From positions 28,584,001 through 28,648,000 of the forward strand of contig NC_087245.1 in NCBI RefSeq assembly GCF_037042905.1: a stretch of DNA of 64,000 bases, written 5' to 3'. The notes below the pieces were generated by a model. The model made no database searches, was not told where the DNA came from, and saw nothing but the letters and a program-made list of their open reading frames with translations. The translations under genes were made by a program, and so were the position numbers. Position 1 is the first letter of the stretch; each line of letters opens with the position of its first letter. This document shows positions 7,151 through 61,029 of the stretch, piece by piece. This DNA comes from Lytechinus pictus (taxonomy: Eukaryota).

Positions 7151-7423
7151 ATAAGTATAGGGGAGGGCGGGGTAAGTTGCGCATAGGGGCAAGTTGAGCC
7201 ACCACCCCCAGGCTAAGAATGAATGAGTCAGAAATTGTGGTGGTGTCATGCATTGATGATCCATTACATAACCCTTGACCCCACCACATTGTTTTCAACT
7301 TTGAAACAAAAAGTACCTTTTTAGAGGAAAAATTTCAGCCAAAAAAGTAAAAAAGGGTGTGAAATAGATATGTGCTTTTTACCCACACACGTTTTAAAAT
7401 ATAATAAAGAAATAAGAACAATA

Positions 7424-22534: not shown

Positions 22535-22936
22535 GGCTATGTACAAAACCTATGGGAAATAAAAACGCGCGGAAAGAGTTCCCTCTCTAGCTCCCTTCGG
22601 GAGCTTACGTATACGTAAGATCGTATCTCTGTGATATGATATCGTATCTATGTGATAAAAGCGTTGAATGAAGATGCCAAGTATATTATGGCTCACATGT
22701 TGTTCCGAATTACAGAATTTGCTTTTCCCCGGCAAATATTTTGAAGAGCATTATAATTCATGATTTTTTTAATATATTCCATACAGTCACTGATTCGCTG
22801 AAAGCGTAATTTCTAAGTCCAGTTAAATCTAGTGTAAACTTGAAAAAGCCGTGAGTGACTTGGAGGGCCGGAGGGAGTTAAAAAAAAAAAAAAAACAATG
22901 TCACAAATGAGATCATCAGAATAAGTTAAGAAACTA

Positions 22937-33100: not shown

Positions 33101-36100
33101 GAAAATTTTTATAGAAAGCAAAAGGTTAAGATAAGACAAAACAATCTGTAAAACATCATCAATTTCTGTATATTTGATTGCGTAAATGAACTGAATTTTC
33201 TGGGCATCCATTAAGATTCAACATAAAAATATATACTTAAGGATCTCCAATAACAGCTAATAATTATTCTTTGTGACCGAAGCCTTATCTGTATGCAATT
33301 ATATTTCTAACATGAGCAAAGTGCAAGAGAATTGATGATTTTCACAAGATTGTTGCTTGAACAGAACATTTCAACCCATGCTCTTAACACCACTTAAATC
33401 TTACACATGGTCTTCATCTGTTTTCAAATATCTTTTAAAATGTGTTTCAGTAAGAAAGATGCACATGAAATGTCACCATGCAATTAAGTCTGGGAAGCTT
33501 TTCATAAACAATTTTGGTCTCACATGTCAAATCTGACAATTTTCATTTTTTTATATATTTCCTGACAAGCACAGTACCTATGGTAACTGTCGAATTAAAA
33601 AATAATTTGTTTCCTTCCATGAAATACTCCCATGGATACCCATAATCAAAACACAGATTTAGACCATGATTTTTAGTTACAACCAAGTTCAGAATAGAGA
33701 TCTAAGAGGTAGGGTTAGTCATTCAGTCACCCACCACACAGCAAATCAACGTCAAAACCAACAAACCACCGAGTCACACCTGTTAGGAGGTTAAAAGCCA
33801 GTAAAATGTTTAAGCGTGGCGTGGCGTCATCATACCGTATTCTCACCTAGGTCATCAGTCAGGAAAGCATTAGGCTGCTTGGAGGGATTGACCGGCCAGG
33901 AAAGAAGGAAAATATCGGCTTTAGTTTAAGACTCATGACAGATCATGATAATAATAATAATAATATGCAACGTTTATATAGTGCTTTAATAACCCAAAGA
34001 GGTAAAACAGATGCTTTTGCAGTTTCTGACTATTCTGAATGCCAGCAATCACATGTCTAATATGGTTAGAGAGAGAAAAATGTACTGAAAATGGATACCA
34101 TTCCAAGTGTAGTGCGTGGTGCTGTTCCTTTAATAATACAAGCCATTTAACTTTAAGAAGATCATCATTGATCATCATTGCACACTTTAAATTGGCAATG
34201 TGATGAAAAAGAAATCTTTAAAAAAATGCAAATTGGCAACTTTTAGGTAAAGTTATTCTTCTATATCAAATTTATGTCATGTATTTTCAAAATGTGAAAA
34301 TAAATAGAATCAATTATCAATAATCATTATTGCCAATTTGAGGAGTACAATATGATTAATTTTGAACTTGTGAAAGCTGTCTACCTCTTTAATTTAATAC
34401 AGATGTTTCTAGATCAAAATAAACTTAAGACTTAAAGGGCAATGTACCATGCAAAGTGAAAAATTTTAAATGCATTTGAGGATAATCAAAGTGCTGATGT
34501 ATGACAAGAGCAAAATCTTTTCTTTGCATGATGGAAAGTTAGATAACATAGGCTGCTGCTGAAGTTGCAATGTTGCTGCATTTGACCAAATTAGGCATTG
34601 AATTTGAACTTAAAAGATAATTGGTAACTTTATGAGGGCTTAACGAAATCTGAGCTGTTTTATCCTTTAACAAGATCACAGAAATACAACTTTGAATCAC
34701 TGAACCCAGAAAAATACAGTTATTAGTGAATCAAGCCTCCATAAAATTAACAATTAAATTGTATAAGTCAGTGCAAATTTTGTTTTGCTAATTTTTTGCA
34801 ATGGAAAAAAAATTACCTGCAAACCGATTGATATTCATAAAAAAATGTGAAGATGATTTCATTTCGAAGTGAAAGAATAATTAATGCATGCAGTAATGGA
34901 TGCGTGTACGACATGCAGGGATAGAACAAAATGGTGCAAAGTGGATAACTTACAATTGAATTGTTTGTTTCTCGTTCACATGAAATATATGGTTCCGTTA
35001 GGTTATCAAATAATATTCAGATGAAATTTGTGTATTTTTTTTTCTTTCATGCATGTTAACAGGTATGATAATGGGATGAATAAAGACTAAACTGATTGAA
35101 TACCTTCGCTGGGTGGAGGAAGGGGGCCATAACGGGGGTCTGTTGCACCCCTAGACCTTTGTTACCTAACAGGATGGTTACAAAGGAACAATTATAATGA
35201 GGTTGCCAAGACAACTAATCTGTTAGATTCACTAAAAGGGGCAAGGGGGTCTACAATATAGTACCTTATCATTTGAAATAGTGAAAACAAATTCTGCTCA
35301 TTTATCACAGGATAAGGATGAAGGTGTTAATAGCTATTATAAGACTTTGAATATACTTTAGTCATCTACATCCATGACAACATTTCAGTGGGTACGACTA
35401 TCAAATAAACGACTTTTTGTTCCAGGACTTGAATTTTTTTTTCATATCTTAAATTAAAAGATTTTTTTTCAACCTCTGAAGTTGAATGGTCAATGTGCAT
35501 AAAATTTGAAGAGACTGTGGAGTTATTGGCCATATTTATAAATTCCATGCGTGGATTTGAATGAATGATTATTTGAGTATATTAGATCAGTGAAGTGATT
35601 GGCAAACTGTTCCCAAACTGTATAAAGCAAAGAATATGGAAAGGGATCTGTTCCCAGGGTCTTTAGAAATGGCAGATGGTGGAAAGGACATGTTTTATGA
35701 CAGGGATAATGGCTGATAATAGGACGGGGAGGAGGAATGAAGATGCCTTAAGAACTGTCCAAAACACCCACCTGGTCCTCCTCCTTTTTCTCCTCCTGGG
35801 CTCCTCCTCTCTCCTGTGCTCCACCTACATTATCATCATCACCACCACGCCCATCATCACCACCATTGACCACCACATTATCATCTTCATTCACAGCGGG
35901 CGGGGCATCGTCTGGGATGGCTTCGGGTACCTCATCATCTTCGAGCATCCTCCCGACCATGTCCTCCTTCTCCTCCGGTGGCTTGGGACTGTCGTTTGAC
36001 TGCTGCTGTGCGGTGTCCTCATTCGCTCCTGGTTCTAGAAAGGACAAATAAAAAAGGGTGGATGTTACTCAAGCCACATGGGGAAGATTAGGTAAAGAAG

Positions 36101-39100
36101 AAAATGAACATAGCGTACACCTGATGGGAATATGCCAGGGTAATAATATCCAAGTCCTTTGGAAGCGCATAGGGACGTTATGACATACTAGTAATGTGAT
36201 ATGCGCTATACAAGGACTGCGTTATTATTAAATGACATGGGTTCTCTGAGCTAACTTGCACCTGAAATGCTCCCCAATAGCTGAATTCATATGACGCTTC
36301 TTTCCAGAGGATACACAACACAACTCTTATCATCGTTGCTTAAGTTTCAATTTGATTCAATTTTATTTTATTTCCATTCCACTCCATATAAAAATAGTAA
36401 CATCAACATAATACAAATATGATTATAAAAGTATAATATATATCACTACAATGATACAGATACAATCACATGATAAAAATGGAAATCGACTGCTTTATAA
36501 AGTCACAATAAAACCCTTTTTTTATTTGAAAAGCAAAATGAAAAATTGACTAAAATACTTACCAAGGTCATCTTCTTCCTCTACTTCTTCAGCAGCGACC
36601 TGGTCGATGGGGAGGTCGATTGCAGTCTCACCGGTCTCTTGGACCTCAGCTGCTCCCTTGGTTTCATTCCGTTCTTCTTTGGCCTTGAAAACACTGTCTG
36701 GATCTACAAGGGCAAGAAGAATCAAAATTAAAATAATTGTGGATGAAGGAATCTGGTGTCTGGCCCCATGCCTGCAAAACTAACATGTATAGCAAGTCTT
36801 GGGGGATTATATTAGATAATTAAATCAAAAACAAAGAGAGAAAAAAATCTATACATGCATATGGGAGGTATATCAGCTGAGCTAATAATAATCTGACACT
36901 CTAGGAATCCATATTCAATATTCAATATAGAGTGGATGCAACACATATCATGAAGAGCCTCGAGTTTGTACTGAATAGATATAAATGCACTTGTAGTCAT
37001 TTACGCATCATTACACATTCTCTTTCAAAATGTGCCAATATCCGCCAGAGATGAAATTAACTACATGTAAGAACAATAAACATGTACATTCTCAAGGTCA
37101 TGTGATTAACAGTACTTGCTCAGTAATTTGTCTGAAAGTCAATTGCTTTCTATCCATTTATTAAACATCTATGTTCTAACAGCATGTCAAGCCACTCAGG
37201 GATGACTGATTAATGATAACGAAGGAGTGACATCTATTGAAATGTTTCCAAACTAAAATTGCATCTCCAAGCAATTAGCGGGACAGACAAAGGGCACGTC
37301 CAGGGAAGCGTATCTTGAAAGTTGCCAGCACTGACTACATTTCGTCAGCTTTGACAATTTAGAAGGAATCCTTGATAAAGATATGATTGCCTGAGAAGCA
37401 CTGGTTTCTGACCGTTACCATGGTAACCTGGTAACTGCATCTATAAACAAAGTGCTTCAAATGGGATAATCACAGGAAACATCATTAGCATAAAATTTCA
37501 ATATTTTCACAGTGAAATAGTATAACCGTTTTATGTAAGCATGCTCTATTAATGATTTGAAGTTTTGCTAACACATGGACACAAATCGCACAAGGAAATT
37601 CTGCAATTTAGCCCCACAAAATAAAAGAAGTGGTCATGTGACACCATTCAACCAATCACGAGGCACAATCTATTCTAGAATACATGAAGCAACCGACTGA
37701 CCACAATCATACATGTAGTTGAATAAATAGTGATCTGCCATGTCCAATAAACTCCTCCTTCAGCTGAAGAAATCGCAAATATGTACAGGTATACATGTAT
37801 GTGCTCTCACACAAAGAGGAAAGAAATATACAATCACACTATTAACACTTTTTGTTTATGCTCTAGAGATGGACATCAGTCATCAACACTCTAATCAAAG
37901 TAGAGATGGATCGAATGACGTTTTGTTGATCAATTTTAAATGAGATTTTATTGAGTGAAATTGGGGGTTTGCTTTGAGTATTTGCAAGACACAACCTCGA
38001 ATGCCATTATCACCCTTGTTTACATAATTAATAAACAATGGAGAACAATATGACGTGATCAACCCAATACCATTTCCATCATCCCCACTTCCACAAGGCC
38101 AATGTCGATTGAACTTCCTACTCGGCAAACGTCATCTTTTTAATGAAACGTTTGAGATTTACAGGACATGCCTAATTATTATGATTGAAAGTGTGAATGG
38201 TGGGGGGGGGAGCAATAACTGTAAAATGAGGAGATGATCGTCAAGCAGCAGGGGTGATTAATGTCATAGCAATAACACCTCCACAAATTACAAAGAAAGG
38301 GTGAACAGAGCTGTATCAATTACCCACTGACGTGACAAATGGGACGGAAATACAAAATATCAATAGAAAGCACATATATGCGAAGCTCAGCAAGGTCATT
38401 CACATTCGGCAAAATAGGCCACTAATCAGCTTAGGACTACGTTTCTAATACATGCAATGTCAACAAACGATCTACATAGCAACAAGGCTGGACAGAGAAC
38501 ATGACTGGGCAACAGAAACGCGCATCTAACAGAGCAATAACTATCATTCTACATGTCGGCATCTACCTTGGGCTAAATGATCGATCTAATAATACAAAGT
38601 CAAAATGTGAGTAGCAGTCATTCAACTTGCAAAAAACACCCCAAAATATATTGTAGAACTTACCAGTTATTGAATTGGATTCTGATTCAGAGGGAATTTT
38701 AAATAGGATTGAAGAATATTTACTACACTTATCATTCAATAGATATCAGAGGGAAATATTACATGGGGGCTCCTGGCGATTTTGCCCTCCAAAATAATTA
38801 TCGTAAAATAAATTTTTCCTGATAGATATAGACAATAGATGTACAGAATACAAGGTCTTAAATTGTTACCCCCAAAGTTTCCAAAACCTGGGGGGAAAGA
38901 TCATTTGTTCATTCATCCTCCAAGTTATGGAATAGCCTCCCCGAAAACATTTAACAGTGCTTGACCTCTGAAACTTACAAACAATACCTTAAAACATTTC
39001 TTTTCAATTCTTCTTAATTTCCTTTATAATTTCCTAAAAAAGCGCCTTGAGCACTCTACAGAGTGGATTTGGTGCAATATAAGTCTAATTATTATTATTA

Positions 39101-42100
39101 TTATTATCATTAAATGCCCTGTGGCCCGTTTCACGAAGAGTCACAACTATGGTTCATGTAACATTGCCATTACGGCAACTACCATGGTAACAGGGCTCCG
39201 CAGCCAATCAAAATCAATGATACCATGCTAGTTACAATAGTGGGAAAGTTAGAAAAGCTGAATGTCTTTATGAAATGGGTCAAAGATGTCTATTTCCACA
39301 TCTACTATAGATGTACATGTATCACATTGTAAATATTGGCCACAAACCACCGATTCTCACAATTTCAAACAGTTCTTTTCTACTCGCCAAGACAGCAGCA
39401 TACAATATGACATTAATCAATCTGCATTCATGGAGCTCTTGATATCCCAAATGCACATTCATTCAAAGCACCATGACATGATGTTTGATTATGTAAATGC
39501 TCCCATCTCATGCAAGTCTATTCATTCTTCATCATAATTTCTTATTTCCTATTGTTATCTCTCACGGACTTCAACCATTTATATGTTTCATGCGGATTTA
39601 CTCCCACATAATCTTGTGGTTAGACAGACTTAGGGGGTGTTGCAAGAAAATATTTGCAATCAATTGCAAAATTTCAGTTGCATATTTACAAGTGATAGAT
39701 CAATTATGAATAAAGAAAATCAATTCATTCTTGATGATGCCAAAAGCATACCCTGTGATCAATAGTAAAGCTTGCAATTTATTACACGACTTATGACTGA
39801 TTTTGGGAACCTAAAATTGGCTTGCAATCGATTACACAAGTTTCTTGCAACACTCTATTACTAATAATAATGAAAATAATAATACTAAAAATAATAATAA
39901 CAATAACAATATGATAATAATAACAATAATAATAATTATGATAATAATAATAATAATAACAACAATATAACAATCATAATAATAATAACAACAACAATAA
40001 CAATAATAATATTTTACCCAGGGTAGCCACTTCTGTTCCAAAAACTGTTCTCCCAGCAGACCCTGCTTAACATGATTATGTTATTATTACCCCAGCTTTA
40101 GCAAGGCTACCTTATCAGTAGCATAACTGACCTTCACTGTAGTCCAATGGACTCTCTTTCTGCTGATCTCTCTCTCTGCTTCTCTTCACTATGGTGGGTT
40201 TGTGATGGAACACCTCTTCCGCTTCCTTCTGCTCCGGGCTCTTCTCCTTCTTGATCTTTGGCGGGGTCGGCTTGGAGGGCTTGGAGGGCTTTGAAGGTTT
40301 GGAGGGCTTCGATGTTTTCTGCTCCTGAAAGACACAGATATTCAATACAGTAAAATTCTAATTGTTTAATGGAACAAGATCAGTAAAATTCTTCTTCTTA
40401 TAGAAGGGGGTATGAAATGATGCGTTTGATGATATATCTCTACACAAATAACATCACTTTCAATTTCATTTATGAGAAAATGGTATTTAGGGAATTAATG
40501 GCCCAAATTCACAAAGATGGTTTTGAAAACCATCGGTTGAACCTATGGTTTATGCAGATTTCCTGTATAAATTGCGCTTTTAATAATCAACCACCTTTAT
40601 AAAACAAGTGGAATGCCTCTGGCCGTCTCACCTGCATCACGCGATTCAATATAGCAGCAGTGCTGATTTTGAAAACTACTATAACTCGCACAAGATGTTC
40701 AGTGATACTTGGTTACTCTTATTTCCACGTTTTATGAACTAGACCAATACACTTATAGAGATATGATGGCAAGTCAACAAATACCCCCAACGTGGCCAAA
40801 GTTCTTTGACCTTACATGACCTTTGACCTTGATCATGTGACCTGAAACTCGCACAGGATGTTCAGTGATACTTGATTACTATTATGTCCAAGTTTTATGA
40901 ACTAGACCAACACACTTTCAAATTTATGGCTGTAATTCAACAAATACCCCAATTTGGCCAAAGTTCATTGACCCTAAATGACCTTTGACCTTGATCATGT
41001 GACCTGAAACTTGCACAGGATGTTCAGTAATACTTGATTACTATTATGTCCAAGTTTCATGAATCAGATCCATAAACTTTCAAAGTTATGATGGTAATTC
41101 AACAGATACCCCCAATTCGGCCAAAGTTCATTGACCCTAAATGACCTTTGACCTTGGTCATGTGATGTGAAACTCATGCAGGATGTTCAGTGATACTTGA
41201 TTAACCTTATGTATAAGTTTCATGAACTAGGTCCATATATTTTCTAAGTTATGATGACATTTCAAAAACTTAACCTTAGGTTAAGATTTTGATGTTGATT
41301 CCCCCAACATGGTCTAAGTTCATTGACCCTAAATGACCTTTGACCTTGGTCATGTGACATGAAACTCAGGCAGGATGTTCAGTAATACTTGATTAACCTT
41401 ATGGCCAAGTTTCATGAACTAGGTCCATATACTTTCTAAGTTATGCTGTCATTTCAAAAACTTAACCTCAGGTTAAGATTTGGTGTTGACGCCGCCGCCG
41501 CCGTCGCCGTCGCCGCCGCCGCCGCCGTCGCCGCCGCCGCCGCCGTCGCCGTCGGAAAAGCGGCGCCTATAGTCTCACTCTGCTATGCAGGTGAGACAAA
41601 AATGTACAATGCTCACGTGCGCTTTCATCACAATACGCTATTTTATTCATGAGTCCACTATTAAAAAATATTGGACTCGTGAAAAAAAGTGTGCTTTCAC
41701 CACGGCAACAGAAATTAATTGGCACACTGTGACAAATGCACATTTTCAAACTTTGTTTCTGTTGCATGGCAATGCAGCTCATCTTGACTTACTGTTTGAG
41801 AGGGTTTTGATGCTTTTGATTCTTTGGATGCTTTAGATTCTTTTGATCCTTTGGACAATCTTGTTACTCTTCTCCTGACTTGGGCAGGCCTATGGAAGAT
41901 AAAGAGGGGCAGGAGGAGTAGGGAAAAAGTAGGGTAGCAAAAGGAGTAGGGGCAGGAGGAAGATCGGGAACAAAGGCAGCAGGAGGAATAGGAAGTCCAG
42001 AAGTAAGTAAGAAGAAACAAAGTGTAGAAATTCACACTTAATACCCAGAAGAATTTATAAAAACAACACTCTTACATGTAAATACTGTAGTATTAACTTT

Positions 42101-45100
42101 AAAGTGTTTAACAACACATATTTATTTAAGCCACGATACATGTTCATTGTTTAAATTACTGAAGGTTATTGTTGAAAGTATTGTCACAGTCACACAGAGG
42201 AAATCGACTCCACACTGACCAAAGATATTACATTATTTCCAATGTTGGTGTGGAGTCGGTTTTTGTTGAAGTGACTGTAGAATTAACATTAAATTCTACA
42301 CTTAACAGTAAACATACAAAGATAAACAAAAATAATAAATGGTAACTGAGAGAGCAATGACTGTCAAAGTTACACTTTTTGTTATTTAATATAAAATAAC
42401 TATAATAATAATAATAATGATAATAACAATAATAATAATAATAATACTACTACTAATACTACTACTACTAATAATAATAATAATATAATAATGATAATAA
42501 TAATACTAATAATACTAATACTACTACTAATAATAATAATACTAATAATAATAACAATAATATAATAATAATAATAATAACAATGATAATAATAATATAA
42601 TAATAATAATAATGATGATAATAATGATAATAATGATAATGACAATTAAAAAATAAACTTCAGCAACTTCTACTACAACAACAACAAACGACTTCTACTA
42701 CTAACTCTTGATCACATATAATGTCACCAACTACCAACTAAACCTCCCAAAATGATATCAGACTACAAAGAGTCTCTTACCTTGTTATTCTTGGTGATAT
42801 GATGACACCATCTCTGGGGTATGGCACCTTCTTGAAGGCTTCTCTGCCAGCAGCAACATAGAATTCATGGTCTTCAAGTTCTTCTGGTCCTTGTAACTCC
42901 CTACCGTTGAGTGAAAGTAACCTAGAAGAAGAAGTAAGCAGATGGAGACTATGAGATTATGGCAAAATGATGGAGGTCAAAAAATGAAGACAATGATGAT
43001 ACCAAAATGAGAAATAAAGGGTGAATTAGAATAAATTACATGGAGGGATAGAAAGAGACACAATGACACATAAAGAAGAAGAAAATAGAAATAGAAGAAG
43101 AACACTGAAGGGATACTTGATACTTAAAATACAAATCAGCATTCCCTACAAATAATATTCAAAGGGTGTTAATCATTCCAAGTTTCCTTTTGTTTTCTAA
43201 AAGATCAATTTGTGTATTTCATAATAAATATGCCTATTAAAGTTGCTCCCTTACTAATTCTAATTCAAACTATAAACCCCATTCAAACACCTTTGTTTTC
43301 CTGAGATCTAACAGATGGAGTTACTTATTAATAACCCTTATTCATCCCTGCACTTGGGATTTATTTTAATCTTTTTCTTTTCAATTCTTACTGCGGCCCA
43401 TGTTATCTTGTGGGTCTTATGGCCTCTCGTGATAATGAATGTTTGTTGAAAATGTATCAAGAAATGCATGGATTATAATTCACTTTTTACCTATTAAATG
43501 AATAATGGATCTTGAAATCTCACAGCAAAGTAAGTACAAAAGTTGTGCCTTCTTCCATGCAGGCAAGACAACGCCCATTACTAAATTCCTTTTTACCATT
43601 TATTTTTCTTCCACTATACTGTTTGCCCCATTGTCTTGGCAACCGATTAATAAGAAATGAGAGAGTGAATACCAAATTGCCCTTGTGATATAATTAGCTG
43701 CATCAATCATAGCAACTACAACAGTCGAGAACTAGCAAAGAAAGATGGAAGGAGGTGAAACAGCCCTCATGCAAGAATCATTTTCAATAGCACTTAGGGC
43801 TCCCATTCAAATGCCTCCGCTGAGCAGGTGGACGGAACTTCCGTTCTAAGGAACCAACGCGGGGATGACTTGTGGGGGGAAAAGGCAGGATGACCTAGGT
43901 GCGAGGCAATCATCCAGTTTGTTTGCGAGATGTGGCACATTCACCACTCCCCAGCCCTGCACCAGCTGATCAAACCAATTTTCTATTTCCTATCATTTTC
44001 CTTCCTTTTCTCACTCCTCTAGTGTTAAATCTGGGTTATAAATTCCCTCTGGAATTTTGCTCATTGATATCATCATACAGTAACATACTGTATATCCTTT
44101 TTAAAGAAATGAAACAAGTCATGAATAAACAAGATTTATATATAGAAAGGGAGAGAGAGACCGAGAGACAGAGACATTGACAGAGAAAGAAAGAAGAAGA
44201 TGAGGATTTAAATCATACACAAGGTACAAATTGACAAGACATCAGAAAAATAATCTTGGATATACATTATGTATCCACACAAATATAACAATGAGGTAAA
44301 AGAAAAAAAGGTAATGTAGGAGACTTTCGATAGCATCCATGGGAATAAAGTGTCTTTGTAAAACACTGCTTTATCAAGCAAAATGTATGGAAATTCAAAA
44401 CTAGAAAAATGTATATGTTTACACTATAAATGGAACATCTTAAATGAATGTTTGATGAGATGACAAGCATGTTAAGGTTGCAACTGCATCAAATTATGTT
44501 CAAATTGACTTTCTACTAAGATTAAAAAACTTACTTCCAAACAACTCCTGTCATCATATTGACCTTCCGCGTGACCTCGTTTAAGACCACATCATAGTTT
44601 TTTAGCATGAACTTGGTGAAGAGGATTTTGATAGCTGGATTGTTGGCATCTCCATTCCGAAACACGCTGTATGATGAGGAGGAAAAGAATACACATGTAG
44701 ATGTTTATAATCATTTTCATAAATTTAGTTCTGACTCATTTCCTTCCATCCATCCATCCATCCCTCTACCTATCCATCTATCTATCTATCCATCCATGAT
44801 ACATCCATCCATTCATTCATTCACTCAATCATTTATCCATAAAATGCATCCATCCATTCGTTCAAATTTTAAGTAAATAATTTCGTTACACAAATAATAC
44901 CTCAAAATGTATGACAATCTGTGTTCATTGAAATAGAGATATCTGGGGGGAGGCAGTCAAATGTATTGCTGTACACATGCGTGACCAAATTACTTCCAAA
45001 CAACCCCAAAGGAATTTTTCTCTGTGTGCAAAATAACCCCCTAAAAAAAGTTTTTCGCGGCTTTATTTGCAAAATTTGGCCCCTAAACAAGTTGTCGCCA

Positions 45101-48100
45101 GAATATGACCTCAGGGAAAAAGCTTGGGAAAAAACATACCCTAAACACGTTTGGATAGTCTTAAAAAAAAGCTTTGGAAGAAAAAATACCCTAAATACAT
45201 GTACGTTTGACCCCGTGATTGACCATTGACCAGTCTTTCAAAACCACCCTTTTTCTTGAAAATCTGTGTTTTTGATACCCTTAACCAATGAACGCGCGGC
45301 CCGCGTCCACAACTGAAAAAAACTCCCCTTTAAACATGTTTTTGGGTCACGCATGTGTACAGCAATATATTTGACTGCCCCCCCCCCAGGAAAGATATAT
45401 GATTAATGTACTTACTAGATGACTTTGCTTCCAATGGATATAGCTGCTCTTTTACATCTTGCTGAAACTTTGAGTCGACTGTGTTGAACGGGTTTGATGA
45501 TGGGTGGAAGCTGCATATGAAAGAACAAAAGGCAATATTTTCAATAATAAAAGATGATGACTTTCAAGCCCATTTTTCAAGATGCTACGTAAACAAAACT
45601 TGCAAACGTTATTGCTACATGTATGTATGCAGATGGTCCCTTTCTAATGTCCATTGGAACAGAATAAAAGGTTCTATGACTGGAAAACTGACATAATTAA
45701 AACTATCAATTACATAATTAATAAGTGCAGAAACTATTCAACAAGGTATACATGTACATGTATATTCTACTGCGCTATATGAAACTCTTGATATGCTTGT
45801 TATATATTTAAAAGATTGTATTGAGATTTGATTTGATGTCATTTATGGACAGTGTTTTCCTGACTTAAGCAAATGTAACATTTTGTAAAGGAATCCATTA
45901 ATCCAAGCAATCATTGATGACCAATCGTCATTTTTTTTCTTTGCTTGTTATCATGCTGATCATGAAATCAATTTAAACACTTAATTATGACAAAAAAAGA
46001 TGTGTATTGTATTATGTTTCTATTAAAACTATTGATTAAATGAAATTAATGTTGATAATAACAAAATAACTGATAAAACAAATTACTAAACATACTATGT
46101 AGATCTACAGTATTTTTTTTTTTAAACATTCAATTCTTTCCCCATTGCATACAGATGGATTTCAGGACATTTTCATAGACTTTGGCACAAAATGTGGAAA
46201 AGGGAATTTATAAAACACTACATGTGTTTCTGACCATAAGCAACCAAAATGACCTCACACAAAGTAAAAGATAATTCAAATTTCCAGAGAGAAGGACTTA
46301 AGAATTGTACACACAAACACCTCACATACACAGTAAACAAAAGTACAGTAGATCAATCACAAAATAAAAATAAATACATGTTTAACAACATCAATAAACT
46401 ACATAATTGTACATTACAGTACATCAACATGTAGATTCTTAGAATTAACACACATCAAAAGCTTCCCGTCTCATATAAAATAAATCCACGTCGATTCATC
46501 AGTCAATCTCTAATTCTCTTAGCCATTCTTAGAGTGCTCATTAAGGCTGCAATTATCATCCTGATATGATTTAACAGCAATCATGGCACTATCCAGTGTC
46601 AAGCCCATTTGCTCAACAATTCACTGGATAATTGCCAATTAATTTACCTATTAACGATCTGACCAAACCCCAGGTCACCTCATTATTTGTATTTCTATCA
46701 TCTATCAGCTATGAGCATTTTCTATTTTTTCTTGTTTATGTCCATTCATATGAAAAGAAAACAAACCCTTAACCTCTTTGTATATCTGTATACATGTACA
46801 ATGCCAGAACAATATAAAAACAAATTATACACAAATGCATGAGAGAATGAATCAATGCATGAATTAAGGGAGCTGAAATGCAAAAAAATAATAAATAAAT
46901 TTAAATTTAAATAAATAAAAAAATGACGATTAAGGACAACAATTTTCCTTTTACTAGTAAATATAAACAGAAAATCTGTTTTGGTTCTTTACTTTTAAAA
47001 ACTCATTGAATTTACATGTACCTTTGCAAAATGGAATTCAGGTATTTGCTGTGTACATGTATATGGCAATGAAAAAAAAATCAATTTTAGATCCAGTTTG
47101 AAATGGAATTACACGTTTTCAGAAACGGAAAAGACATTTTATTGAAACAGCAAATCACTGTCCCAATATTTTTGTGGCTGAAAGCTAAAAATGGGCCCAT
47201 TGGAGAAGACTCAGTTTCAATCCAGTAGTTCATCATCTCAATATAATATGCCACTTTCAAAAAAACTTTTAAAAACCTATAAACATTTCACAAGAAGAAG
47301 ATGTATCTTCTGCACATCAAGTTCAGAGACAGAGACCTTGCCCATATCAACAATGAAACCACCTGCCATTCTAATCCTTTCAATATTGAAAAGGTTAATT
47401 CCAATATGGTATAGATGCAGAGCTATATTCAGGTTACCATCATATTGTTAAAAAGTTTTTTGTTGTATTTCAAATCAATTCATAGATAAAAAAAATGAGC
47501 TGACTTTATTTTATCTATTAATTTCTATCTGGACCCTACCTCTATCCCTCTGTTCACAAATCACATATCATTATTTATGGAAATTATGAAAAGGTAAATG
47601 TGACAATTCTCTTGATTGGTCAGATAATTTATTAAATGTGTCAAAAGATCAGAAATGCAAAGACATGTACAATTCTGTAACACCCCCTGCTGCAAGGCTA
47701 ACTTTTAACATAAAATATGTATGTATGAAATTAAAATAATAAAAATGCATAATACTCAATTCCTCAGTGTTAACAGGAAAGTGCAAGATACAAACCTTTA
47801 ATTGATTTTAGACTATGTAGATTATCTTGTTATTTATTTCAGAGACAGACTCTCTATTCAGTAGATTAAAATAGAAAACATCTAGGAATACTCTATTACA
47901 CATACATGTACATCTACAGTACACGTAGCTAGAGTCAATGAAAAGTCATGAACAGAACAGAGGCATACCCTACCAATGCTTTTCTTGAGGCAGAGCACAT
48001 ATATCTGTTGAGTGTAGTCATGTCAACAAAAACAAAATATCTGTACATAACATATTATTACTAATGACTGGAATCATAATGCGGTTGCTAAGCCTATCAT

Positions 48101-51100
48101 TAAAAGGATTAATTACACTTAGCATTAACAAATTTAAGGTGCCAACTCATGTCTTCTTTCTATGATTATCTGTTTTGTAAATCATCAAAACCCCATTTGT
48201 ATATATATTGCAATCATCCTAATGGAAATGAAGTGATATTTGCAGCAGTCATATGGCCTTCAATACCATATTCAATTTTAATATCAGTGTTAAACGTGCT
48301 GGTCTTTGCAGGATGCTGAGTTTGATCTATCAGGTGTACATATACGTACATGCACACATATACATGTAATTTTATCCTACAAGACTCCAAAACCATAAGA
48401 AATTTTTTACGAACTTATCTGTCTTTACTGTACATGTAATACAACAACTTAACAAAGAACTAAATAAAGAATGAGAAAAAAAGAGGGAAAGTTATTCAGA
48501 TCTAAAAACATCAACCTTTCTCTATCAACTTGCACTTACATGGAGACTAACAGAAAAGCTATCGGAGGCAATACAGTGCTGACATTTATGGGAATATTGA
48601 TTGATTATTGATCTAATAATTGATTAACTACTGCTCAGTGAAATCCATATTAACAGTCAAGCCTTGAATAAAGTTGGAATAAAATATTTATTGATATCAA
48701 TTTCAATTGTGATGCATTTTTCTGCTTAATAACACAGCAATAAAATTATGCTTCTCATCCTGAATGCAATATTGATTTTAAATAAGGACGGTTTGATTTA
48801 TCTCAAGCTTTGATAGTAGAGTGTATACCGAATGAAAAGATCTTATCATGTGAGAATAATAATTTTTCAAATTTGTAATTTGTCAGTACTCAGTAATAAA
48901 CTTTTTAAGCAATAATCAGGGGCTGTATTTTGAACATTGTCTTTTCTCAGAGATAAGACAGAATTGGTATTCTGGTGGATGTCATAACTTATGTCATAAA
49001 TTTTGTCTCTCCTCTTTAGCACACACCAAAAACACACGATTCAAAAGCACACAATCCAAATATACAAGCAAAAGATGATACCATAGTACGATAGTATCTT
49101 GATACCATGCAAACTATATGTCAATCATACAGTGATCATATTATTATTCAGATTAGATTGTTGTATAAGTTTCATTCATCATCCATGACTATTTTCAGAA
49201 ATATTTTTTTTCATGCTACAAGTTGTTAGGCAATAGATATTAATTTCTCTTTACTTTCTGTTTTTCCTTTCTTTCAATCTCTCTCTAAGGTCTGAAGATC
49301 CTTCTCAGCTCCATATATCTCTCTTCCCCGGCCACTTACATTGACGAGTGGATACCATGCGCGACCAAAAAAACACGTAAAAAGGATGTCTTATTCAAGA
49401 TTGGGCACGTTACGTACGTAACGTGATAAGGGTGTCAAAAACACAAAAATAATGGAAAAAGGGTATCTATTTCGCTAGGAAAGTTACGTGTTTAGGGTCA
49501 AATTTGCGGGGATGATGAAACAAAATTAAAATGTTTTATAAAGGATGTCCTCTTTGCCCCAACAATACGTGTTTAGAGTCCGATTTGCGCGAGGTGTGGA
49601 AGGTGGGGCCGTGCACCAAATGGTGTGTAAAGGTAAAACCGACGGCCGACGGACCCGTGAGATAACAAATATCGCTGTACTTGTTTAGGGGTTCATTTCA
49701 GGGAATACTTGCCAAGAGTGTTGTTTTGTTTCCAATACTTGTTAAGGGTAGGGTTTCAGACGCTAATACTTGTTAAGGGGTGCATTTTCAGAATATGGAA
49801 AATACGTGTTTAGGGTGCTTTTCTAGACCCCATGGTCGCGCATGGTATCCACTCGTCAATGGAAGTGGCCCCCCCAGGCTCTCTTCGCAATTAAGCGCAC
49901 CAACATACGCGCAGTTGTGTGATGCCAGCTACTATATTGAGGATACGCCGATGCGCTACCAGGCCTAACTATTGGTTAGAAGGGCTCCCACTCAGATCTA
50001 ACTGTGATTTTGATTAGTTTGCTTTCGAAAAGATGCGGGGAAATTATACGAAAGGGAAAATACAATGTTCAGAAGACAGGTTTGTGACAATCATAGTGAT
50101 TGTCATAGCGATTTCGGAGAGAAAGACAAGATTTATTACGAAAGTTATGACAGTGTTCCAGACTACCACCCATGCATGGTCATCAAAATATTTGGAATGA
50201 AGAATCTATCAAAAGATTAAAAGATAAAACTTTTCAGAGGCTTTTGAAACATAACAACAAAGTGATTGATGAGTACAGTGTAGATTCAAGTATTGCTGTA
50301 CATGTACTACATGTACATTGTTGAGAACATTATTGGAATAGCATTACAGAGTATCCAGGCAACAGAGTATCAGTTTAATATTAACAGATTTGTTCTTAAT
50401 ATATGCACACATGCATACCACATTGTGTTTGTTTGTACAATTTGCAATTTATTTTCAGTCAGAAAGTGAAAAAGCGTATCGTGTTCAAAAACTTACGCTA
50501 CCTTGTTTTCCATCCCCTAGGGCACATGACTTGATATTTTGTGGTTTTGTTTAGTCTTTGCGACAATTTTTTAAACAGGCCTACATAGAAATGACAATTA
50601 TTGACTGAGTTTCAATTATAAAACGTGTTACAAGATCCAATCCCTAAAACAAACAAAAATCAGTGGCCCATAAAGTGTTAAAAACTTTAATAAGGAACTT
50701 TGTCATTATGGCCACTACCATAGTAACTGGGATTATCAGCCAATCACAATATAGCCTGCTGATGTAGTTACAATAACACCAAAGTTACCATGCATGTAAT
50801 TGTAACTCTTTATGAAACAGGCCCCTTGTAGCAAACAATATTAAATAAAAGTAAAATAAAAATGTAAGAATTAAATGTAAGCAGCACATGGATGACTTCT
50901 CTTTCATCTAGACTCATGTGTTTTTCACAATCCATAACCAAGGTACACCATGTTATTCTGAGCACCCATATTTATAACTTAAAGATCAATAATGATACAA
51001 AGGGGCATAGCAAGCTGCAGCAATCAGGGTATTATGGCTGTATAAGAGAGAGCAGACAATGCTGGGGGAAGAAGTGGGTTCATTCAAAATAATGGCTGTA

Positions 51101-54100
51101 GGAGGAAAAAATCGATAACACCTTAGTGACCAAGATACTACAGGGATGTAAAGGGGATTAACAATGCTAACTGGTCCCTGTACTGCTGCATACTGGCCAG
51201 CTCATGAGGGGAAGCTCCCCCCCCCACCTATTCCCCTTTTCCATAATTTCTTTTTCTTCAATAACATGCCATTCTCTCTCTTTTTTCCCCACAAATTGAG
51301 TAATTTCTTGGAACATCTATTCTTATTAAGTTATTCCATTATTTAATGCTGAATTCTTTTATCTTATCCCAATCTCTCTCTCTCTCTTCTCAATTTCTTG
51401 TAACAACTAACATGTATCTTAATATCCTAACGTCTCTCTCTTCTCAATTTCTTATTTCATGTTATCATACTATCATTTTTTTCTGGGATTACTTTTTATC
51501 TTATAAATGCCAATCTCCCTTTTTTGTAATTTCATTTTCTATCTTATGATATTCTCTGAAGTCTTTCACCCATCCACCTCCTTTTAATTTGTGTGTCCTA
51601 AAATACACTGCAGGTTTTTATGAAAAATGGTTCTTCAACAAAAATGTGTAGAACTGCAGCCAAAGTCTACAGTATAGTACAAGGTGTATGTAGGTCAAAA
51701 TTTACAAATATTCTTTCAGGGTCCACTTTTCACATTCTACTCCTGAACATTGGATAAGCGTTATTCATTGCAAAGAATGGGATATTTCTTTTATCATTTC
51801 GGGGATGAAATCGCCCAGAGTCCCTGTGTATCCCCCCCCCCCTCCCTCTCTGAATATCTTTCAGAGTATTGAAATAATTTGTATTTTAGAAGTCTTGAAC
51901 AACAACAAAATATCCAGAATCTCTAGTTCCCTACACACTCAAGGTGGGTTTTGAACCATGGATGTGCATACATGTACATGTATTTGCTTTACATGAATGT
52001 GCATCTGCTATTCTGCTTCATTAATATCAAATGTACTACAATTACACCTCCAATACTTGACAAATTGCAATATTGATTTTTATATTGAAAGTTTGATGCG
52101 TTAACATTTTTGATATGGCATTTTGGCCCCAGTACTGGAAAAATACAGAAGTATACCTAAGCTGTATTGTATGTGTGTACATGGGTCTTTCCATGAAGCT
52201 GGGGCATAAATTGTGACATTTCAACACAAGTTAAAAATCACAATTTATACATTCATTTGTAAAGACCATACAGATTTAGAATAATTTTTTAATGAAGTTA
52301 TTGAGCAAAGTAGCATCAGGATAATTACATTTGGTCAAAAAAGTCATATTATGGCAATTGGGTTTTCCAAAATTTGATACAATACAAGTACTACATGTGT
52401 ATGCACGAACCTCAGATTTCCTATGCAAACTGATATTTCAAAAAGAAATCTGAAAAACTTTCATTATGCTAGCAGGTGTAGCATAAAACTCTATGGTCTA
52501 AAGTATATGTAAATAATAAATGCATTTTAGTATTGAGTTATGCTGAAATGTCACTATCTACACACGCAGCCCAACTTCATGGAAAGACCAACAATGAAAA
52601 CTCTTACATGTACATGTAATTCCTTCATTAATTAATTAAAAAGGTGACAACAAAGACATTTACAAAAACATCAACATCCCACAACCCAGTTTTATATATT
52701 TTCTTGGTTTAAAATGAAAGTACAAGTTTAGATTGATTTTCTCATCAATCTTGCTGACTGAAATTATTCATAACTTTACTTATGGTGGTCTTCCTCAGCA
52801 GCACGAGCTAGAAAAGCCAATGTACAATATTGACAATGTACACAGATTCATTTCAGCTGTGGCATTGTACATATCGATACCCCCCACGAACAGATTGAAT
52901 AAACTTGAAGATCAAAGATATATTTCTAACCAAACAATAATGGGACGTTTTAGCAAATCGCACTGTTTACACGTCACCAGGCAACAAGGTTCAGGTATCT
53001 AGCTAAACGGTGAATGGATGAGTGCTAGCGCTGTTTGAATAGGAGATATGAAGAGAAATGGCATGGATAATGTACAAAGGTGAATTTATATTTGACAGTC
53101 AAGTGCACAATATGAGGCATGAGTTTACTTGTGTTTATTGGCTCTTTCATGAAAATGGGGGTGAAGTACATGTAAGTAGACATTGGGTGATTTCTTGTTG
53201 ATGCTGGTTCTGGTTTTGTTAGATTTTGGGGATTGTAGCTCCAACACTCTCCTGTATTTTATCGAGCTGACAAAAAAAATTCACATTTTGATGGCTCGAT
53301 GTAGCAAAAGTCATTCCAATATCAGCTTCATATGATTTGTTTCCGTGCTAGCTGATGTATGTAAACAGAAACACTGTGGTCCGTGTTCTCAAAAGAAGTT
53401 TCATTGTATCCTGGTAGAAAACCATGGACTATGCCGATTTCTTGCATAATCGCGCTTTCTTAGTACCCTTTGCCAAAAGATTATGCGATGAAATAAGCGT
53501 AATTATCAGCATATTAGTTCAAGGTTTGTACCATGATACAACTGACATCTCTTTCGAGAATAAGGGCCCAAACACCAAACTTGAAATCACCCAATTGGTG
53601 ATATGACTATGTGGCAACATTTAATGAGGACAGAATGCACTGGCAGGAGTTAAAACTTGGCAACAACACCCAAAGCATTTATTCTATATTTGACAGCTTA
53701 ATGAGTGTATTAATGTTCCATTCACCAAACATGAAGACAACTTTAAACATACCTTTACAGCTGGGTCTAGTGGGTCAGTCTGCAAACAATTAATTACATC
53801 ATGTAAATTAAATCTTGGTGTTATATTTAGGTTAGAACTTCCATAATAATGGAAACATCGTTTGTTCAAAATCATAAATAAATTAAATATCAAATGTTTC
53901 AATAGATTGAATTTTAATCTGGTCCAGCATATGTATGTACCCAACATTAGACAAAGGATTTTTGGACCTACAAAAGCAAGTACAAGTGTACAAGTTACAT
54001 AAATAAGATTCCTCCTCAATCAATATGGAAAATACACAGTATGATGTTCTTTTTTTTTCTATATCAAAAGCTGCAAATGTCATGCATGAAATAAAAATAA

Positions 54101-57100
54101 TCATGTGTGTTTGAAAGAAAGTGACATGCTTTCCATTCTTTCATGAATACAGCATACATGTACACGTACATAGTTCGATTGACAAAATTTTTCATGTAGG
54201 CACACTTACCGATAATCTTGTCTTTTGTGGAGTTAATGTTTGAATTTTATTGTACCTGGTTGGGAAAAAAGGAAGAAGAAATGGAAGGAATGAATTACAC
54301 ATTGTCATAATTGACAATTTATAACATAAATCTAATGACATTGACAAGTTGATTTGAATAAAAAGAAAATATATTCATTACATCAAATAAAGTTTTGCTC
54401 AATGTGACAAAAGAGAGTATATGAAGAAGGGTGATACATTAAAATGAAGGTGACGATGACAACAACACTCTTTTCTTCTTAACTTCATATGAAATATGAG
54501 ATATTTCAAACCTTAATCCTATTGGCTCAAACTTGAAAAACATCCAAGTACATGTACCATTACTCTTATTGTAGCTTTTTCAAAAATGAGCTTAAATTAA
54601 AAAATTTCATAAATTTAAAAGCAAAAAAACCAAACAAACATGTAACATCATATGCTTTCTCAGCTCCGAATCCCCTGTTGTGTTGGGTGAAATTAATAGG
54701 CAAAACTAACATGAATTTCTAATTTACAGATCTATCTGATTCATGAAATAATCAGTGTTATCCCTGTGTGATTTTTCCGTTTATTCAATTCATCATAAGT
54801 TGCGAGTGGATACTTGATTTAGTAAAAAAAAAAATATTCTGGAGCTCTAGGGAATCATTTTTTGGCAATTGTGACTGGCAGGGAAAGGGGAATTGTCGTT
54901 GCAAGCTTGATAATCAATGAAATAAAGGTGAGCTGTGGATCAGTGGATTTTGATTTATTCATGTGAACTGAATGACAGTCAGGGGATTGAATCCCACCAT
55001 GGTATTAAACTGTTAATCCACTTGTTCAACAAGGTTACAACTTACAAGCAGAACCTACATTTAATTCTCAGATCGCCAAATAACTAAAAACTTAAACCCA
55101 CTTGATTAACTATCAATTAGGTCTAATGGCCATTTGGTCTAAAAACATCACTTGGCCTAGTACTAGTAGATGGTCTAATTTCCACTTAATATACTTTGCA
55201 TTGTGCAAAACAAACACTACCGGTACTTGTACTTGTAGTTCATTTAACCACACACTAAATGGACATTAGACTTGGTGTGTTTGCTGGTCACATTTACTGC
55301 AACATCTCATCAAAAGTGATCATACAGTATGTGGAAAATCTCTACTTACATGTACTATAGTTTCTGAATTACCGGTAATAACTTTGTGTTTGTGGATGCA
55401 TATGTGCTGCCCATGATTACATAAATTATTTAAGATATATATCCCGTAAGTGAAGAAAACACTTGTTCTCTTGCAATACTTAGAGCTTAAATGGTGAACC
55501 ATGTGTAAACTGTCTGTGTGCATGCATGGGCGGCAGGGATATTTGATTAGAACATTTTTCGTAGGTGATTTTCAGAGCAATGACATTTCTATATTGGAAA
55601 TATGAGTGTGGTAAGGATGGATCTTAACTTTTTCCAATTTCCTATCACATTAGGGATATTCATAAAAGAGCCACATAATCTTTATCAATGAGTTGTAGGC
55701 CTATACAGTACATTTCATACAATCTGATTCTATTGACTTTCCTAGTTTCCTTACAGTTGTTTAAACAAACTTTAAATAAATGTTTTACAAATTCAACTTT
55801 AAATATCAATTTTCATGCAATGGATATTAATAATTCAACATGGTTGTTTAGCTTTAAATGTCAAAAGCTTTGTTTACAAAAATATTTATAGAATTCCTGA
55901 TCAATTCAGATAAAGTAAAAAAACAAGTTGCATCTTACATGTAAGACTTTTTCTTTTTGCTGTAGAGTATATCCACACGAAGCAAGATCTTTGACAGTAT
56001 TATGATACACACAGCTCCACAAAATTCTAAATGAACTTGCTAAACTTGATAAAGTTTCAATAATTTACTTCATGTACAACCTGGGTGAAAAGGCCTGCTG
56101 CTCTGCAGTGATTAATTCTAATCCAAATCACGTTTAAAGGATAAGTCCATCCCAACAAGAAGTTGATTTGAATAGAGAAAATCCAACGAGCATGACAATG
56201 AAAATTTCATCAAAATCATAAATAGGAAAACTAAGGCATATTATAGTTTTGCTTAATTTCGTAAAAAAGAAATAGGCACACCCTGATCTGTACGCAAATT
56301 GATGAAAGGACGGATGACATCACTTGAGACTATTCATTTGTATTTTAATATATGAAATATTCAAATTTTCTCCTTATTGTCCTGTGAAACAAAGTTTCAT
56401 TCCTAACTGAACATGTGGATTTACCATTGTTTTAATATTATGGTTCAATCACTTTGAAATGATGAAATATTACAAACAATAAAAAAACAAAGAGATACAT
56501 GTAGTGAGGGACATCATCGACTCTCATTTGCATGTCAATTAGTTGTGTGTATATACATCCATGTACATAAATGTTTTGCGAAAAATAGACAAACCTTCTT
56601 ACATGTAACACCCGATTTCGATGAAATTCTCAGCGTTATACTTCCTTTACTTTGATTTCTCTGTCAACAAAAAGGTTGTCTAGAAGTCCAATCATAAATA
56701 TCAGATCTAGTAGATATGTTTTCTTGTCAAAACTGGAAATGAAATATTCTCTCACTCCCCCCCCCCCCCAAAAAAAAGGATTTAAGGTAAACACCATAAA
56801 ATCATTAAAACTTTAAGCATGTTTGTTGCAATGTCATTATGCCTTCATGAAATAAAGATTTATAGATCTAGGTAGACCTAGATCTACTCTTCTCGTCATT
56901 CTTTAAGATTAGATCATCTGTAGTATTCTAGATCTACACATACAGTATAGCTAACAGTAACACCTTAGATTTGCTCCAATCTAGATTCTAGACTAGAGTC
57001 TCTACACAAAAACAGCCTAACATGCCACTGCCATTGGACACTACACACAAGTTCTTTTTCATTATCAAACATAAACATACCGGTAACCATCATTTCTGGG

Positions 57101-59029
57101 GATTTATTTAACAATTTCTGACATTTTACTACATGTATAATCCCCAGTGAGCCAACGCAGTTCAGCGGAACAACCAAAATACAGAGACTGAAGCTTTTGG
57201 TCTAAATCAAACATTGCAATGATGAACTAAATCTACACGCTGGCCTAGCTTAGTCTTGAGGACTCCATGATGATGTCTTTTTTAAATACTTTGACATATA
57301 TATACTTCTTCATCATTGGAGTCTTGAACCGCTTTTCCCTAGGAAATCCATCTTTTAATATAAAAATCATGTAAATTGTTGTGATTTTATTAATCTCTAC
57401 ACCTTCCTATGCCTAATGCGTAGGAAAGTTTAATAAAATGGCCAATTAAAATGTTCAAGAATGAAGGTTTCTTACCAGACCGATGTCGTGTAGATCCCTC
57501 GATCCAAATGTACACAACGCAAATACAATAGGGTCGACCCTTGAACCGCTTGTGTATGACGTACATCCGGTTAGCGATGCCATTTTGAAGAACAATTTAT
57601 AGATAAAAATTATTATTTCACAAATACTAAATTTATTACGTGATTATAAATAATTAGTATAATACTGCTAATTATTCATAATTACGTAATAAATTTTAGT
57701 ATTCAAAACGGCATCGCTAGTAACCGGATGTACATGTACGTCATACATAAGCGGTTCAAGGGTCGACCCTATTGTATTTGCGTTGTGTACATTTGGATCG
57801 AGGGATCTACACGACATCGGTCTGGTAAGAAACTTCATTTTTGAACATTTTAATTGACAATTTTTTTAAACCTTCCTACGCATTAGGCGTAGGAAGGTGT
57901 AGAGATTAATAAAATCACAACAATTTACATGATTTTTATATTAAAAGATGGATTTCCTAGGGAAATTCATCTTTGTTTACATGTGTCTCTTAAACACATA
58001 CCGTAAGGGTACTAGTATTCAACCCGTTTGGAGAGTTTCCTCAAATATATAGAAATATAGAATTTACCTGAATTTCAGACCCGTCTTATTTCCAAGAGCA
58101 AATGCTGGTTATTCTTTTTCCGTTATTTTTTTCTTCAACCAGTTGACTGTGTGCGCGGGCGATCGAATTATACGGCGACGGATTTTAGTACTAGTATTCA
58201 ACCCGTCGGTACTAGTATTCAACCTAGCGATGAAAGATAGCCCTGTCTCTCTATCTGCCCTTGTCCCATCCGACTAAGGACTAGACCATTTGAGATGAGA
58301 CCAAACAGGGAATTAATCAAGGCCAGAGACTTACATAGATCTAGATCTAATTTAGCAATCTAAACCCTTTTGAGATTTGCTATCAATCCTCACTAGGTTG
58401 AATACTAGTACCATTCAGTGCAAAAGGCCATCGCCGCATAATTCGACCCTCCGCGAATACAGTCGACAGATTGACAAAGAAAATATCGACAACAGATTAC
58501 CCTGGAAATAACAAAGGTGTGAAATTAAGATAAATTCCCCATTTCTAAATACTTTGGGGAATATGTCAAAATCTTTGAATTATGCCGGGTTGAATACTAG
58601 TACCCATACGGTATATGAAAGGCGGTTCAAGACTCCAATGATGAAGAAGTATATGTCAAACTCAAAGTATTTTAAAAAGACATAGGGCCTAGACATCATC
58701 ATGGAGTCCTCAAGACTAGGCCTAAAGTTACATGTAGCTACTTACTGATGTCTCTTGAATCCTTCACTGCCAGCTGCAACATAGAAATGGTTATTTTCAA
58801 TGCCTCCCAAATCTGAAACTGCAGTCCTGCCAGATGGTGTATATACCCGTCGTACAACACCACCAGTTTTTGTCTTCACTCTTAATGTGACAAGTTCAAT
58901 AAAAGCGTCCCAGTTTTTAACTTGTCGTGGATTGACGACAACCTTTTTACACTGAAAGTTTGTATCTCCATTCCGATAAACAAAAATACTTTTGGCCGGC
59001 GTTGATTGAAGAGTTGTTCCGGATGCCAT
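30164..59029 (-). CDS. DCDC2: Doublecortin domain-containing protein 2-like (two DCX domains plus long disordered C-terminus), 10 coding exons, 971 aa
   Basis: Exons 59029-58746, 54255-54210, 45510-45416, 44666-44535, 42921-42781, 41889-41793, 40324-40132, 36703-36563, 36034-35772 and 31687-30164 all have GT-AG boundaries and join in frame (2916 nt). DCX1 reads AKSIFVYRNGD...YVAAGSEGFK and DCX2 reads IYVFRNGD...YVAAGREAFKKVPY. The DCDC2-like segment SVFKA...GAAEVQE...IDLPIDQVAAEEVEEE is present. Extra small alternative exons are possible. Confidence 0.9.
38865..39110 (+). mobile_element. L2-like LINE 3' end fragment
   Basis: Encodes PKVSKTWGERSFVHSSSKLWNSLP, followed by an AAGCGCCTTGAG...GGTGCAATATAAGT stem and an (ATT)n tail. 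Confidence 0.75.
39123..39281. mobile_element. MITE family E copy
   Basis: GGCCCGTTTCACGAAG...TACCATGGTAAC...GCAGCCAATCAAAAT...CTTTATGAAATGGGTC. Confidence 0.7.
39858..40012. repeat. (TAA/CAA)n microsatellite
   Basis: Directly visible. Confidence 0.9.
40603..41600 (+). mobile_element. Helentron-associated non-autonomous element (HINE / DINE-1 / pearl-type) with internal tandem array
   Basis: Subterminal inverted repeats GTCTCACCTGCAT (40625) / ATGCAGGTGAGAC (about 41586). The tandem units have periods of 163, 162, 163 and 192 bp plus a partial unit. A (GCC/GTC)n microsatellite lies at 41488-41553, followed by a 3' hairpin; both flanks are A-rich. Confidence 0.85.
42400..42705. repeat. (TAA/TAC/TGA)n microsatellite
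   Basis: Directly visible. Confidence 0.9.
44742..44862. repeat. (TCCA/TCTA/TTCA)n tetranucleotide repeat
   Basis: Directly visible. Confidence 0.85.
44943..45390. mobile_element. MITE family B (G-tract termini, related in architecture to family A), full copy
   Basis: TIRs (G)n-GGCAGTCAAATGTATTGCTGTACACATGCGTGACC / GGTCACGCATGTGTACAGCAATATATTTGACTG(C)nAGG; flanks AGAGATAT / AAAGATAT (7/8 TSD match). Confidence 0.85.
49327..49878. mobile_element. MITE family A copy 3
   Basis: Same TIRs and interior; 8-bp TSD CTCTCTTC at 49319-49326 and 49879-49886. Confidence 0.9.
50664..50825. mobile_element. MITE family E copy
   Basis: TACCATAGTAAC...CAGCCAATCAC...CTTTATGAAACAGGCCCC. Confidence 0.6.
56138..56690. 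mobile_element. TTAA-flanked MITE copy 2 (diverged; right end approximate)
   Basis: TTAA-AGGATAAGTCCATCCCAACAAGAAGTTGATTTGAATA..., homologous to 28410-28937. Confidence 0.65.
57085..57204 (-). repeat. Dispersed repeat D, inverted copy
   Basis: Reverse complement of 6099-6223 with small indels. Confidence 0.8.
57251..58718. mobile_element. Large foldback element in DCDC2 intron 1
   Basis: Outer arms 57251-57334 and 58618-58718 (TAGTCTTGAGGACTCCATGATGATG / CATCATCATGGAGTCCTCAAGACTA); inner near-perfect palindrome 57335-57964 centred near 57660. Confidence 0.9.
58001..58611. mobile_element. TA-flanked MITE inserted in the right arm of the foldback
   Basis: TIRs CCGTAAGGGTACTAGTATTCAACCCG / CGGGTTGAATACTAGTACCCATACGG with TA on both sides, and internal repeats of GTACTAGTATTCAACC. 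Confidence 0.85.
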
Positions 59030-61009: not shown

Positions 61010-61029
61010 ATGGACCTACGAACACTCCG
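61010..61029 (+). CDS. Possible first coding micro-exon (MDLRTL..) of a divergently oriented gene continuing beyond the window
   Basis: ACAAAATGG start context followed after 20 nt by a consensus CG|GTGAGT donor. It lies downstream of a CpG-rich patch (60670-60970) with ATTGG (CCAAT) and TTACGTCA motifs. No downstream exon was identified. Confidence 0.35.

Follow-up and report, generated by a model that had tools for sequence, protein, structure and literature searches.

Cut-and-paste excisions are normally hard to count, because the scars that they leave vary or get erased. In Caenorhabditis elegans, the transposons Tc1 and Tc3 are cut with a 2-base stagger (10.1101/659086), and 78% of somatic Tc1 footprints read TACATA/TATGTA (PMC12632400). 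The palindromic octamer TACATGTA is named as a Tc1 footprint, and called rare, in PMC3520976, which cites Eide and Anderson 1988 for it. For Sleeping Beauty, footprints of the form TACAGTA/TACTGTA and the non-canonical TAGTA/TACTA are reported (10.1101/659086). According to PMC2577343, Tc1 inserts at the consensus CAYATATRTG and Sleeping Beauty at RCAYATATRTGY.

Here we describe a 64,000-base stretch of sea urchin DNA (the window) in which TACATGTA is strongly over-represented. With a probability of roughly 0.6, we interpret these octamers as fixed germline scars, that is, excision footprints, of a Tc1/mariner-type element with CA...TG ends, formed by repair that kept both 2-base overhangs. 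The mechanism proposed is already known; the unusual part is the density and uniformity of the scars. A literature search, mainly of open-access papers, listed no description of this octamer pattern in sea urchins. With a fixed eight-letter scar as dense as one per kb in places, germline excision rates, target choice and the repair pathway would be legible from sequence alone.

Abundance and form of the octamer

The window contains 43 copies of TACATGTA in 40 clusters, compared with 2.6, 3.75 and 8.8 expected from Markov backgrounds of order 2, 3 and 4, respectively, and with 2.2–2.6 when the octamers were taken out of the background. An earlier, sequence-only reading of this DNA had called the octamer very frequent, and the count against a Markov background within the window (43 versus about 2–4) bears this out. 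The hexamer ACATGT has T before it and A after it at 43 sites (86 counting both strands), and the other 15 flank pairs reach at most 9 each on both strands. Among the 16 palindromic TA-N4-TA words, strong enrichment was seen for the cores CATG (43), GATC (20), CTAG (11), GGCC (8) and CCGG (4), besides TATATATA, with the remaining 10 at counts close to expectation; microsatellite words aside, the most enriched TA-N4-TA words are palindromes. This palindromic form is what inverted element ends predict. The counts of TACTAGTA (11) and TAGGCCTA (8) include words that belong to element arms, so that the raw figures overstate their excess.

The palindrome ends sharply at 8 bases, the next pair being complementary in 13 of the 40 clusters compared with 29% at background TA sites. 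Two candidate origins were rejected: fold-back of arbitrary length, because the palindrome does not grow outwards, and CpG decay from TACGCGTA or TACACGTA, because these precursors occur 0 and 3 times and the sister product TATGCATA once. One-mismatch neighbours of TACATGTA are also in excess (75 versus 47–51 expected), which fits gains over a long period, some of them recent; any age derived for the gains is very rough, and we place no weight on the figure.

Neither the main Tc1/Tc3 footprint TACATA/TATGTA (72 versus 56–66 expected, barely raised) nor the Sleeping Beauty form TACAGTA/TACTGTA (23 versus 10 expected, twofold) is the leading word in the window, where the octamer stands at 43 versus 2–3. 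Expressed as excess copies, this amounts to about 38–40 for the 8-mer, about 13 for the 7-mers and 6–16 for the 6-mers.

Gains at TA sites in repeat copies

From six comparisons of repeat copies, the sequence-only reading had proposed that the octamer derives from a plain TA by a 6-bp insertion. Copy-specific gains at TA are indeed present, but only some are exactly +6, with 7 bases, +2 or an extra substitution elsewhere. Thus, the observation is real overall but was overstated case by case.

The strongest of the six is the octamer at 45196..45203 in repeat family B. In 4 of 4 public sequencing runs (5, 5, 32 and 33 contigs), other family B copies lack exactly 6 letters here, although the comparison row reads the same for TA and CA in the short form. 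The sister copy within the window (6760-7150) ends just past the TA at which the other family B copy has the octamer.

Two further gains are carried by foldback element F (57334..57965, arms of about 270 bases), which is nested in the left arm of a larger element E. The octamer at 57731..57738 in its right arm is a real gain of 6 bases over the left arm (TA at 57562-57563), of ambiguous mechanism: the gain equally amounts to an exact tandem duplication of ATGTAC, so that this site alone cannot separate a footprint from slippage. TAGTA at 57718..57722 is a 3-base gain relative to the left-arm TA at 57572-57573, and the GTA insertion claimed at 57720-57722 is therefore genuine. Among the 12 of 546 indel rows listed for the public runs, none has a +6 gain at the left-arm TA of foldback F, and rows with 18–29 contigs lie nearby; this hints weakly that most family members have the short form at that TA.

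The remaining comparisons are less clean. In repeat D, the octamer at 57130..57137 shows a net gain of 6 bases over the copy near 6174, but with one additional substitution, the short copy having AA where TA was predicted. The octamer at 8571..8578, in the outer copy of element C, is a real gain over the inner copy, but of 7 bases rather than 6. At 56496..56503, in a TTAA-flanked MITE, the octamer is absent from the sister copy at 28782, but the net gain over that copy and over the family is only +2, so a second event is needed; in public-run contigs the MITE family shows two 1-base gaps here, and its loose-end consensus resembles the 28782 copy. Finally, TACCGGTA at 57078..57085 sits at the limit of repeat D homology with the copy at 6099-6222 and so fails as an example of insertion.

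All five octamers that lie within aligned repeats are missing from the sister copy, and none is common to both; four lie in the longer copy, and the sister of 45196 ends there. A duplicated TA with net gain, a feature of Tc1/mariner footprints, was found at 57731 (+6), 45196 (+6) and 57130 (+6 with a substitution), and imperfectly at 8571 and 56496. A census across 15 repeat pairs counted 43 gaps of at least 3 bases, of which 3 create an octamer, compared with about 0.4 expected (p about 0.008, a rough value for sites that the sequence-only reading had already selected). That the octamers are insertion-like gains at TA sites is thus well supported.

The duplication at 57731 bears on an account without a transposon, in which the palindrome is made from near-matches, ATGTA or GTAC for example, by templated repair on the spot (slippage, template switch or synthesis-dependent end joining), after which the TACATG unit expands. 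Besides this exact tandem duplication, the three doubled octamers found among the clusters speak for it, as do bases next to the octamer: C follows in 23 of 80 flanks versus 14 expected, and CAT in 6 versus 2.1, while the flanks of TAGATCTA likewise lean towards continuing its period (G in 15 of 36 versus 5.6 expected). Perfect 12-base hexamer repeats are present in only 4 of the 40 clusters, however, so that simple duplication is possible in only these 4, and 17 of the 43 octamers lack any periodic extension. The flank bias remains when flanks starting with CA are removed, the palindrome lacks outward growth, and neither TATGCATA (1 copy) nor TAAGCTTA (0) is enriched. We therefore regard templated repair as quite unlikely.

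That assembly or sequencing errors made the octamers has a negligible probability. Our comparison with contigs from public runs covered 12.8 kb of the window and 4 of 11 runs, its output being mostly high-copy repeats. Of the 24 octamers in the compared stretch, 7 keep their length in contigs of two other runs (X8 and X10), which have too few gap letters for a 6-base loss, if the gap column counts letters. This retention in independent contigs argues against an artefact, and we found no point in favour of one. No filled allele, with an element at the octamer TA, appears among the rows listed in this comparison, which include 12 of 546 indel rows; a further 897 joint and 6053 loose-end rows lie outside the listing. 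For organism A, which is more distant, differences in net length are too ambiguous and were left out. When exact motifs taken from repeat family A and from foldback F were looked for in metagenome contigs, each had 0 matches.

Gene setting, flanking bases and resident elements

A doublecortin-domain (DCDC2-like) gene on the minus strand spans 30164..59029 according to tblastn exon mapping and a splice-site scan, its lower end lying at about 30164; the exon at 58748-59029 has its best matches in Diadema proteins (72–73% identity). This gene holds 31 of the 40 clusters (1.07 per kb), compared with 6 across the other 32 kb (0.19 per kb) and 3 in the last 3 kb, past a probable first exon at 61010 that was read by eye. 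None falls in the nine exon ranges tested, and clusters in this gene are intronic; a coding position considered for 53167 was ruled out because exon 2 lies at 54255-54210. A tandem array of 163–192-base units occupies 40683-41489 in an intron of the same gene. The FMN-reductase gene near 800-4700 has almost no octamers, which shows that a gene body alone is insufficient. Exons of this NADPH-dependent FMN reductase gene (PF03358) were located at 3275-4744 on the minus strand.

The other palindromes are distributed differently. The median CpG observed/expected ratio is 0.62 around TAGATCTA, TAGGCCTA and the mixed words TAGACCTA/TAGGTCTA, compared with 0.40 around TACATGTA (p 5e-4, an optimistic value because the sites are clustered). 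Many of these words border divergent gene starts at 59–61 kb, a split between gene body and promoter that rests on one window. Dense clusters of TAGATCTA and TAGGCCTA lie at 56860-56940, 58336-58349 and 61366-62180, up to about 3 kb from two divergent gene starts, and their flanks favour C before and G after. Positions 59029 and 61010 probably mark a head-to-head gene pair in a CpG-rich region (observed/expected about 1.0 at 57–60 kb).

The concentration of clusters in one gene body could also reflect selection for a protein-binding motif of Irx or MYB type in regulatory introns; in PMC3520976, TACATGTA is read as a site for a transcription factor in Phytophthora and, by citation, as the preferred Irx site. 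We consider this origin very improbable, because TACATGTA arises by insertion inside transposon copies, with 0 of 5 sister pairs sharing it, and because selection explains neither the gain in length nor the parallel palindromes. Selection could have acted later on some octamers.

Flanking bases point to a preferred target. Across 80 pooled flanks of TACATGTA, C at position 1 (23 versus 14), G at position 2 (24 versus 13) and T at position 3 (42 versus 27) are over-represented, the bias at positions 2 and 3 surviving removal of flanks that start with CA. Even with CAT left out, TAT, TGT and CGT together make up 14 of the 80 flanks versus 4.4 expected (p 1e-4), for a Y-R-T pattern that was picked post hoc from the same data. 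The resulting TA-Y-R-T context resembles the published Tc1 and Sleeping Beauty targets, and an empty-site preference of this kind is a feature of Tc1/mariner footprints; position 4, G in the Tc1 target, is not significantly biased (16 of 80 versus 13 expected).

Several TA-flanked elements reside in the window. Element E (57246..58724) is palindromic with GG...CC ends, TA on both sides and a decayed left end; its arms contain 5 of the 11 TACTAGTA words and one TAGGCCTA, which are parts of the arms and not scars. A separate CC-ended element at 57999-58613 was dropped, because this segment belongs to the arms of element E. The two arms differ by 13 bases at 58680-58700, where a 7-base core between 6-base direct repeats contains TA-GGCCC-TA, possibly another type of scar. 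Element C (7158..8984) consists of two nested TA-flanked copies with GG...CC ends, the inner one at 7422-8410, such that the element was inserted at a TA of another copy of itself; a scar of element C that kept both overhangs would read TAGGCCTA. The inner copy contains, at 8051-8185, a 117-base palindromic element (8059-8177) that has CAG...CTG ends and is bordered by a perfect 8-base target duplication, its empty site being visible in the outer copy; from the length of the duplication we take it to be hAT-like. An inverted-repeat element at 22935..24262 is TA-flanked with CC...GG ends and would correspondingly leave TACCGGTA, and a GA end is possible for a short palindrome at 21653. At the far edge of the window, a large foldback element (62498-64000, arms of at least 550 bases with 91% identity) runs off the end.

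By contrast, an inverted-repeat scan of the window (16-base arms, at most 2 mismatches, up to 4 kb) returned no TA-flanked CA...TG element, its sole CA row being a chance match between two octamers. Thus, candidate makers reside in the window for the minor words but not for the main one. The source with CA...TG ends that the sequence-only reading had proposed gains from the presence of GG- and CC-ended elements flanked by TA, but itself has no representative in these 64 kb. This imbalance, with about 38 excess scars and no CA...TG resident in 64 kb but few scars for the GG/CC-ended residents, raises the prospect of a TA-specific cut-and-repair process by which a fixed CATG core is added with no element ever resident, for example through abortive integration, re-excision straight after insertion or a nuclease whose cuts have 4-base self-complementary ends. 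Two further observations would suit such a process: the product is more uniform than the published Tc1, Tc3 and Sleeping Beauty spectra, and TACATGTA is also abundant upstream of Phytophthora genes (PMC3520976). We know of no such TA-specific process that adds CATG, however, a low-copy active element could look alike, and the flanks are biased in the manner of a transposase target. On balance, we judge it unlikely.

An excision model and its described relatives

The reading that we favour, excision of a Tc1/mariner-type element, draws on the copy-specific gains at TA, the palindrome that stops at 8 bases and the Tc1-like flanks; set against it are the absence of a CA...TG element from the scan of the window and main footprints that differ from those of Tc1/Tc3. 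In the first step, a CA...TG element would insert at TA and duplicate it, as is known for the Tc1/mariner family; TA is doubled at the octamer sites here. Given the observed flank bias, the element would prefer a TA in Y-R-T context. Each end would then be cut 2 bases inside, as is known for Tc1/Tc3, so that both donor ends carry CA as a 3' overhang. These non-complementary overhangs would be joined tip to tip and filled in to give TA-CA-TG-TA, a net gain of 6. The scar presents TA followed by CAT, a favoured context, and could therefore be hit again, which may account for the three double scars. Alternative joins of CA overhangs would yield TACATA or TATGTA by full overlap and 7-mers by one-base overlap; because the excess of 8-mers is larger than that of 7-mers or 6-mers, the model needs a repair bias towards keeping both overhangs, just as it supposes that the element exists. 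The words TAGGCCTA, TACCGGTA and TAGATCTA would be the corresponding scars of families with other ends.

More tentatively, germline repair in this sea urchin might usually keep both 2-base overhangs, such that each TA-targeting family leaves its own palindromic octamer, with families sorted by chromatin, gene bodies poor in CpG receiving the CA-ended scars (about one per kb) and the surroundings of CpG-rich gene starts the GA/GG-type words. If true, germline excisions could be counted, dated and assigned to families from the genome, and many small insertions and new TACATGTA binding sites would trace back to excision as a leading source.

Compared with C. elegans Tc1/Tc3, the scars described here share the TA duplication plus what would be terminal CA/TG bases, a Y-R-T target consensus and TACATGTA as a recorded product, and the 2-base stagger of Tc1/Tc3 is the one that we infer for them. 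They differ in that the 8-mer dominates, fixed in the germline at up to about one per kb, whereas for Tc1 TACATA/TATGTA prevails (78%) and TACATGTA is rare. Sleeping Beauty likewise leaves TA-bounded scars from its element ends and has a similar target consensus, its 7-mers are twofold enriched here, and TAGTA at 57718 is one of its listed non-canonical footprints (10.1101/659086). Unlike the scars here, however, it has a 3-base stagger with a 7-mer as the main product, and TACATG was not found in the text reporting it (10.1101/659086).

The Phytophthora motif-1 (PMC3520976) is the same word, TACATGTA, is very abundant, and had a footprint origin raised for it. Its authors rejected that idea in favour of a transcription-factor site in upstream regions, whereas the octamers here are intronic and copy-specific in repeats. 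If the octamers are scars, TACATGTA 'motifs' obtained by motif discovery, as in Phytophthora, may be mutational in origin. In rice, DNA-transposon excisions, Mariner elements included, were likewise read from scars by genome comparison (PMC4423477). Those scars are heterogeneous, with deletions and filler and only 8 of 94 excisions perfect, which makes scars as uniform as the ones here, dominated by one fixed word, unusual. Taken together, the octamers work like Tc1/mariner footprints and are putative members of that class, with a spectrum that differs from that of the elements studied so far.
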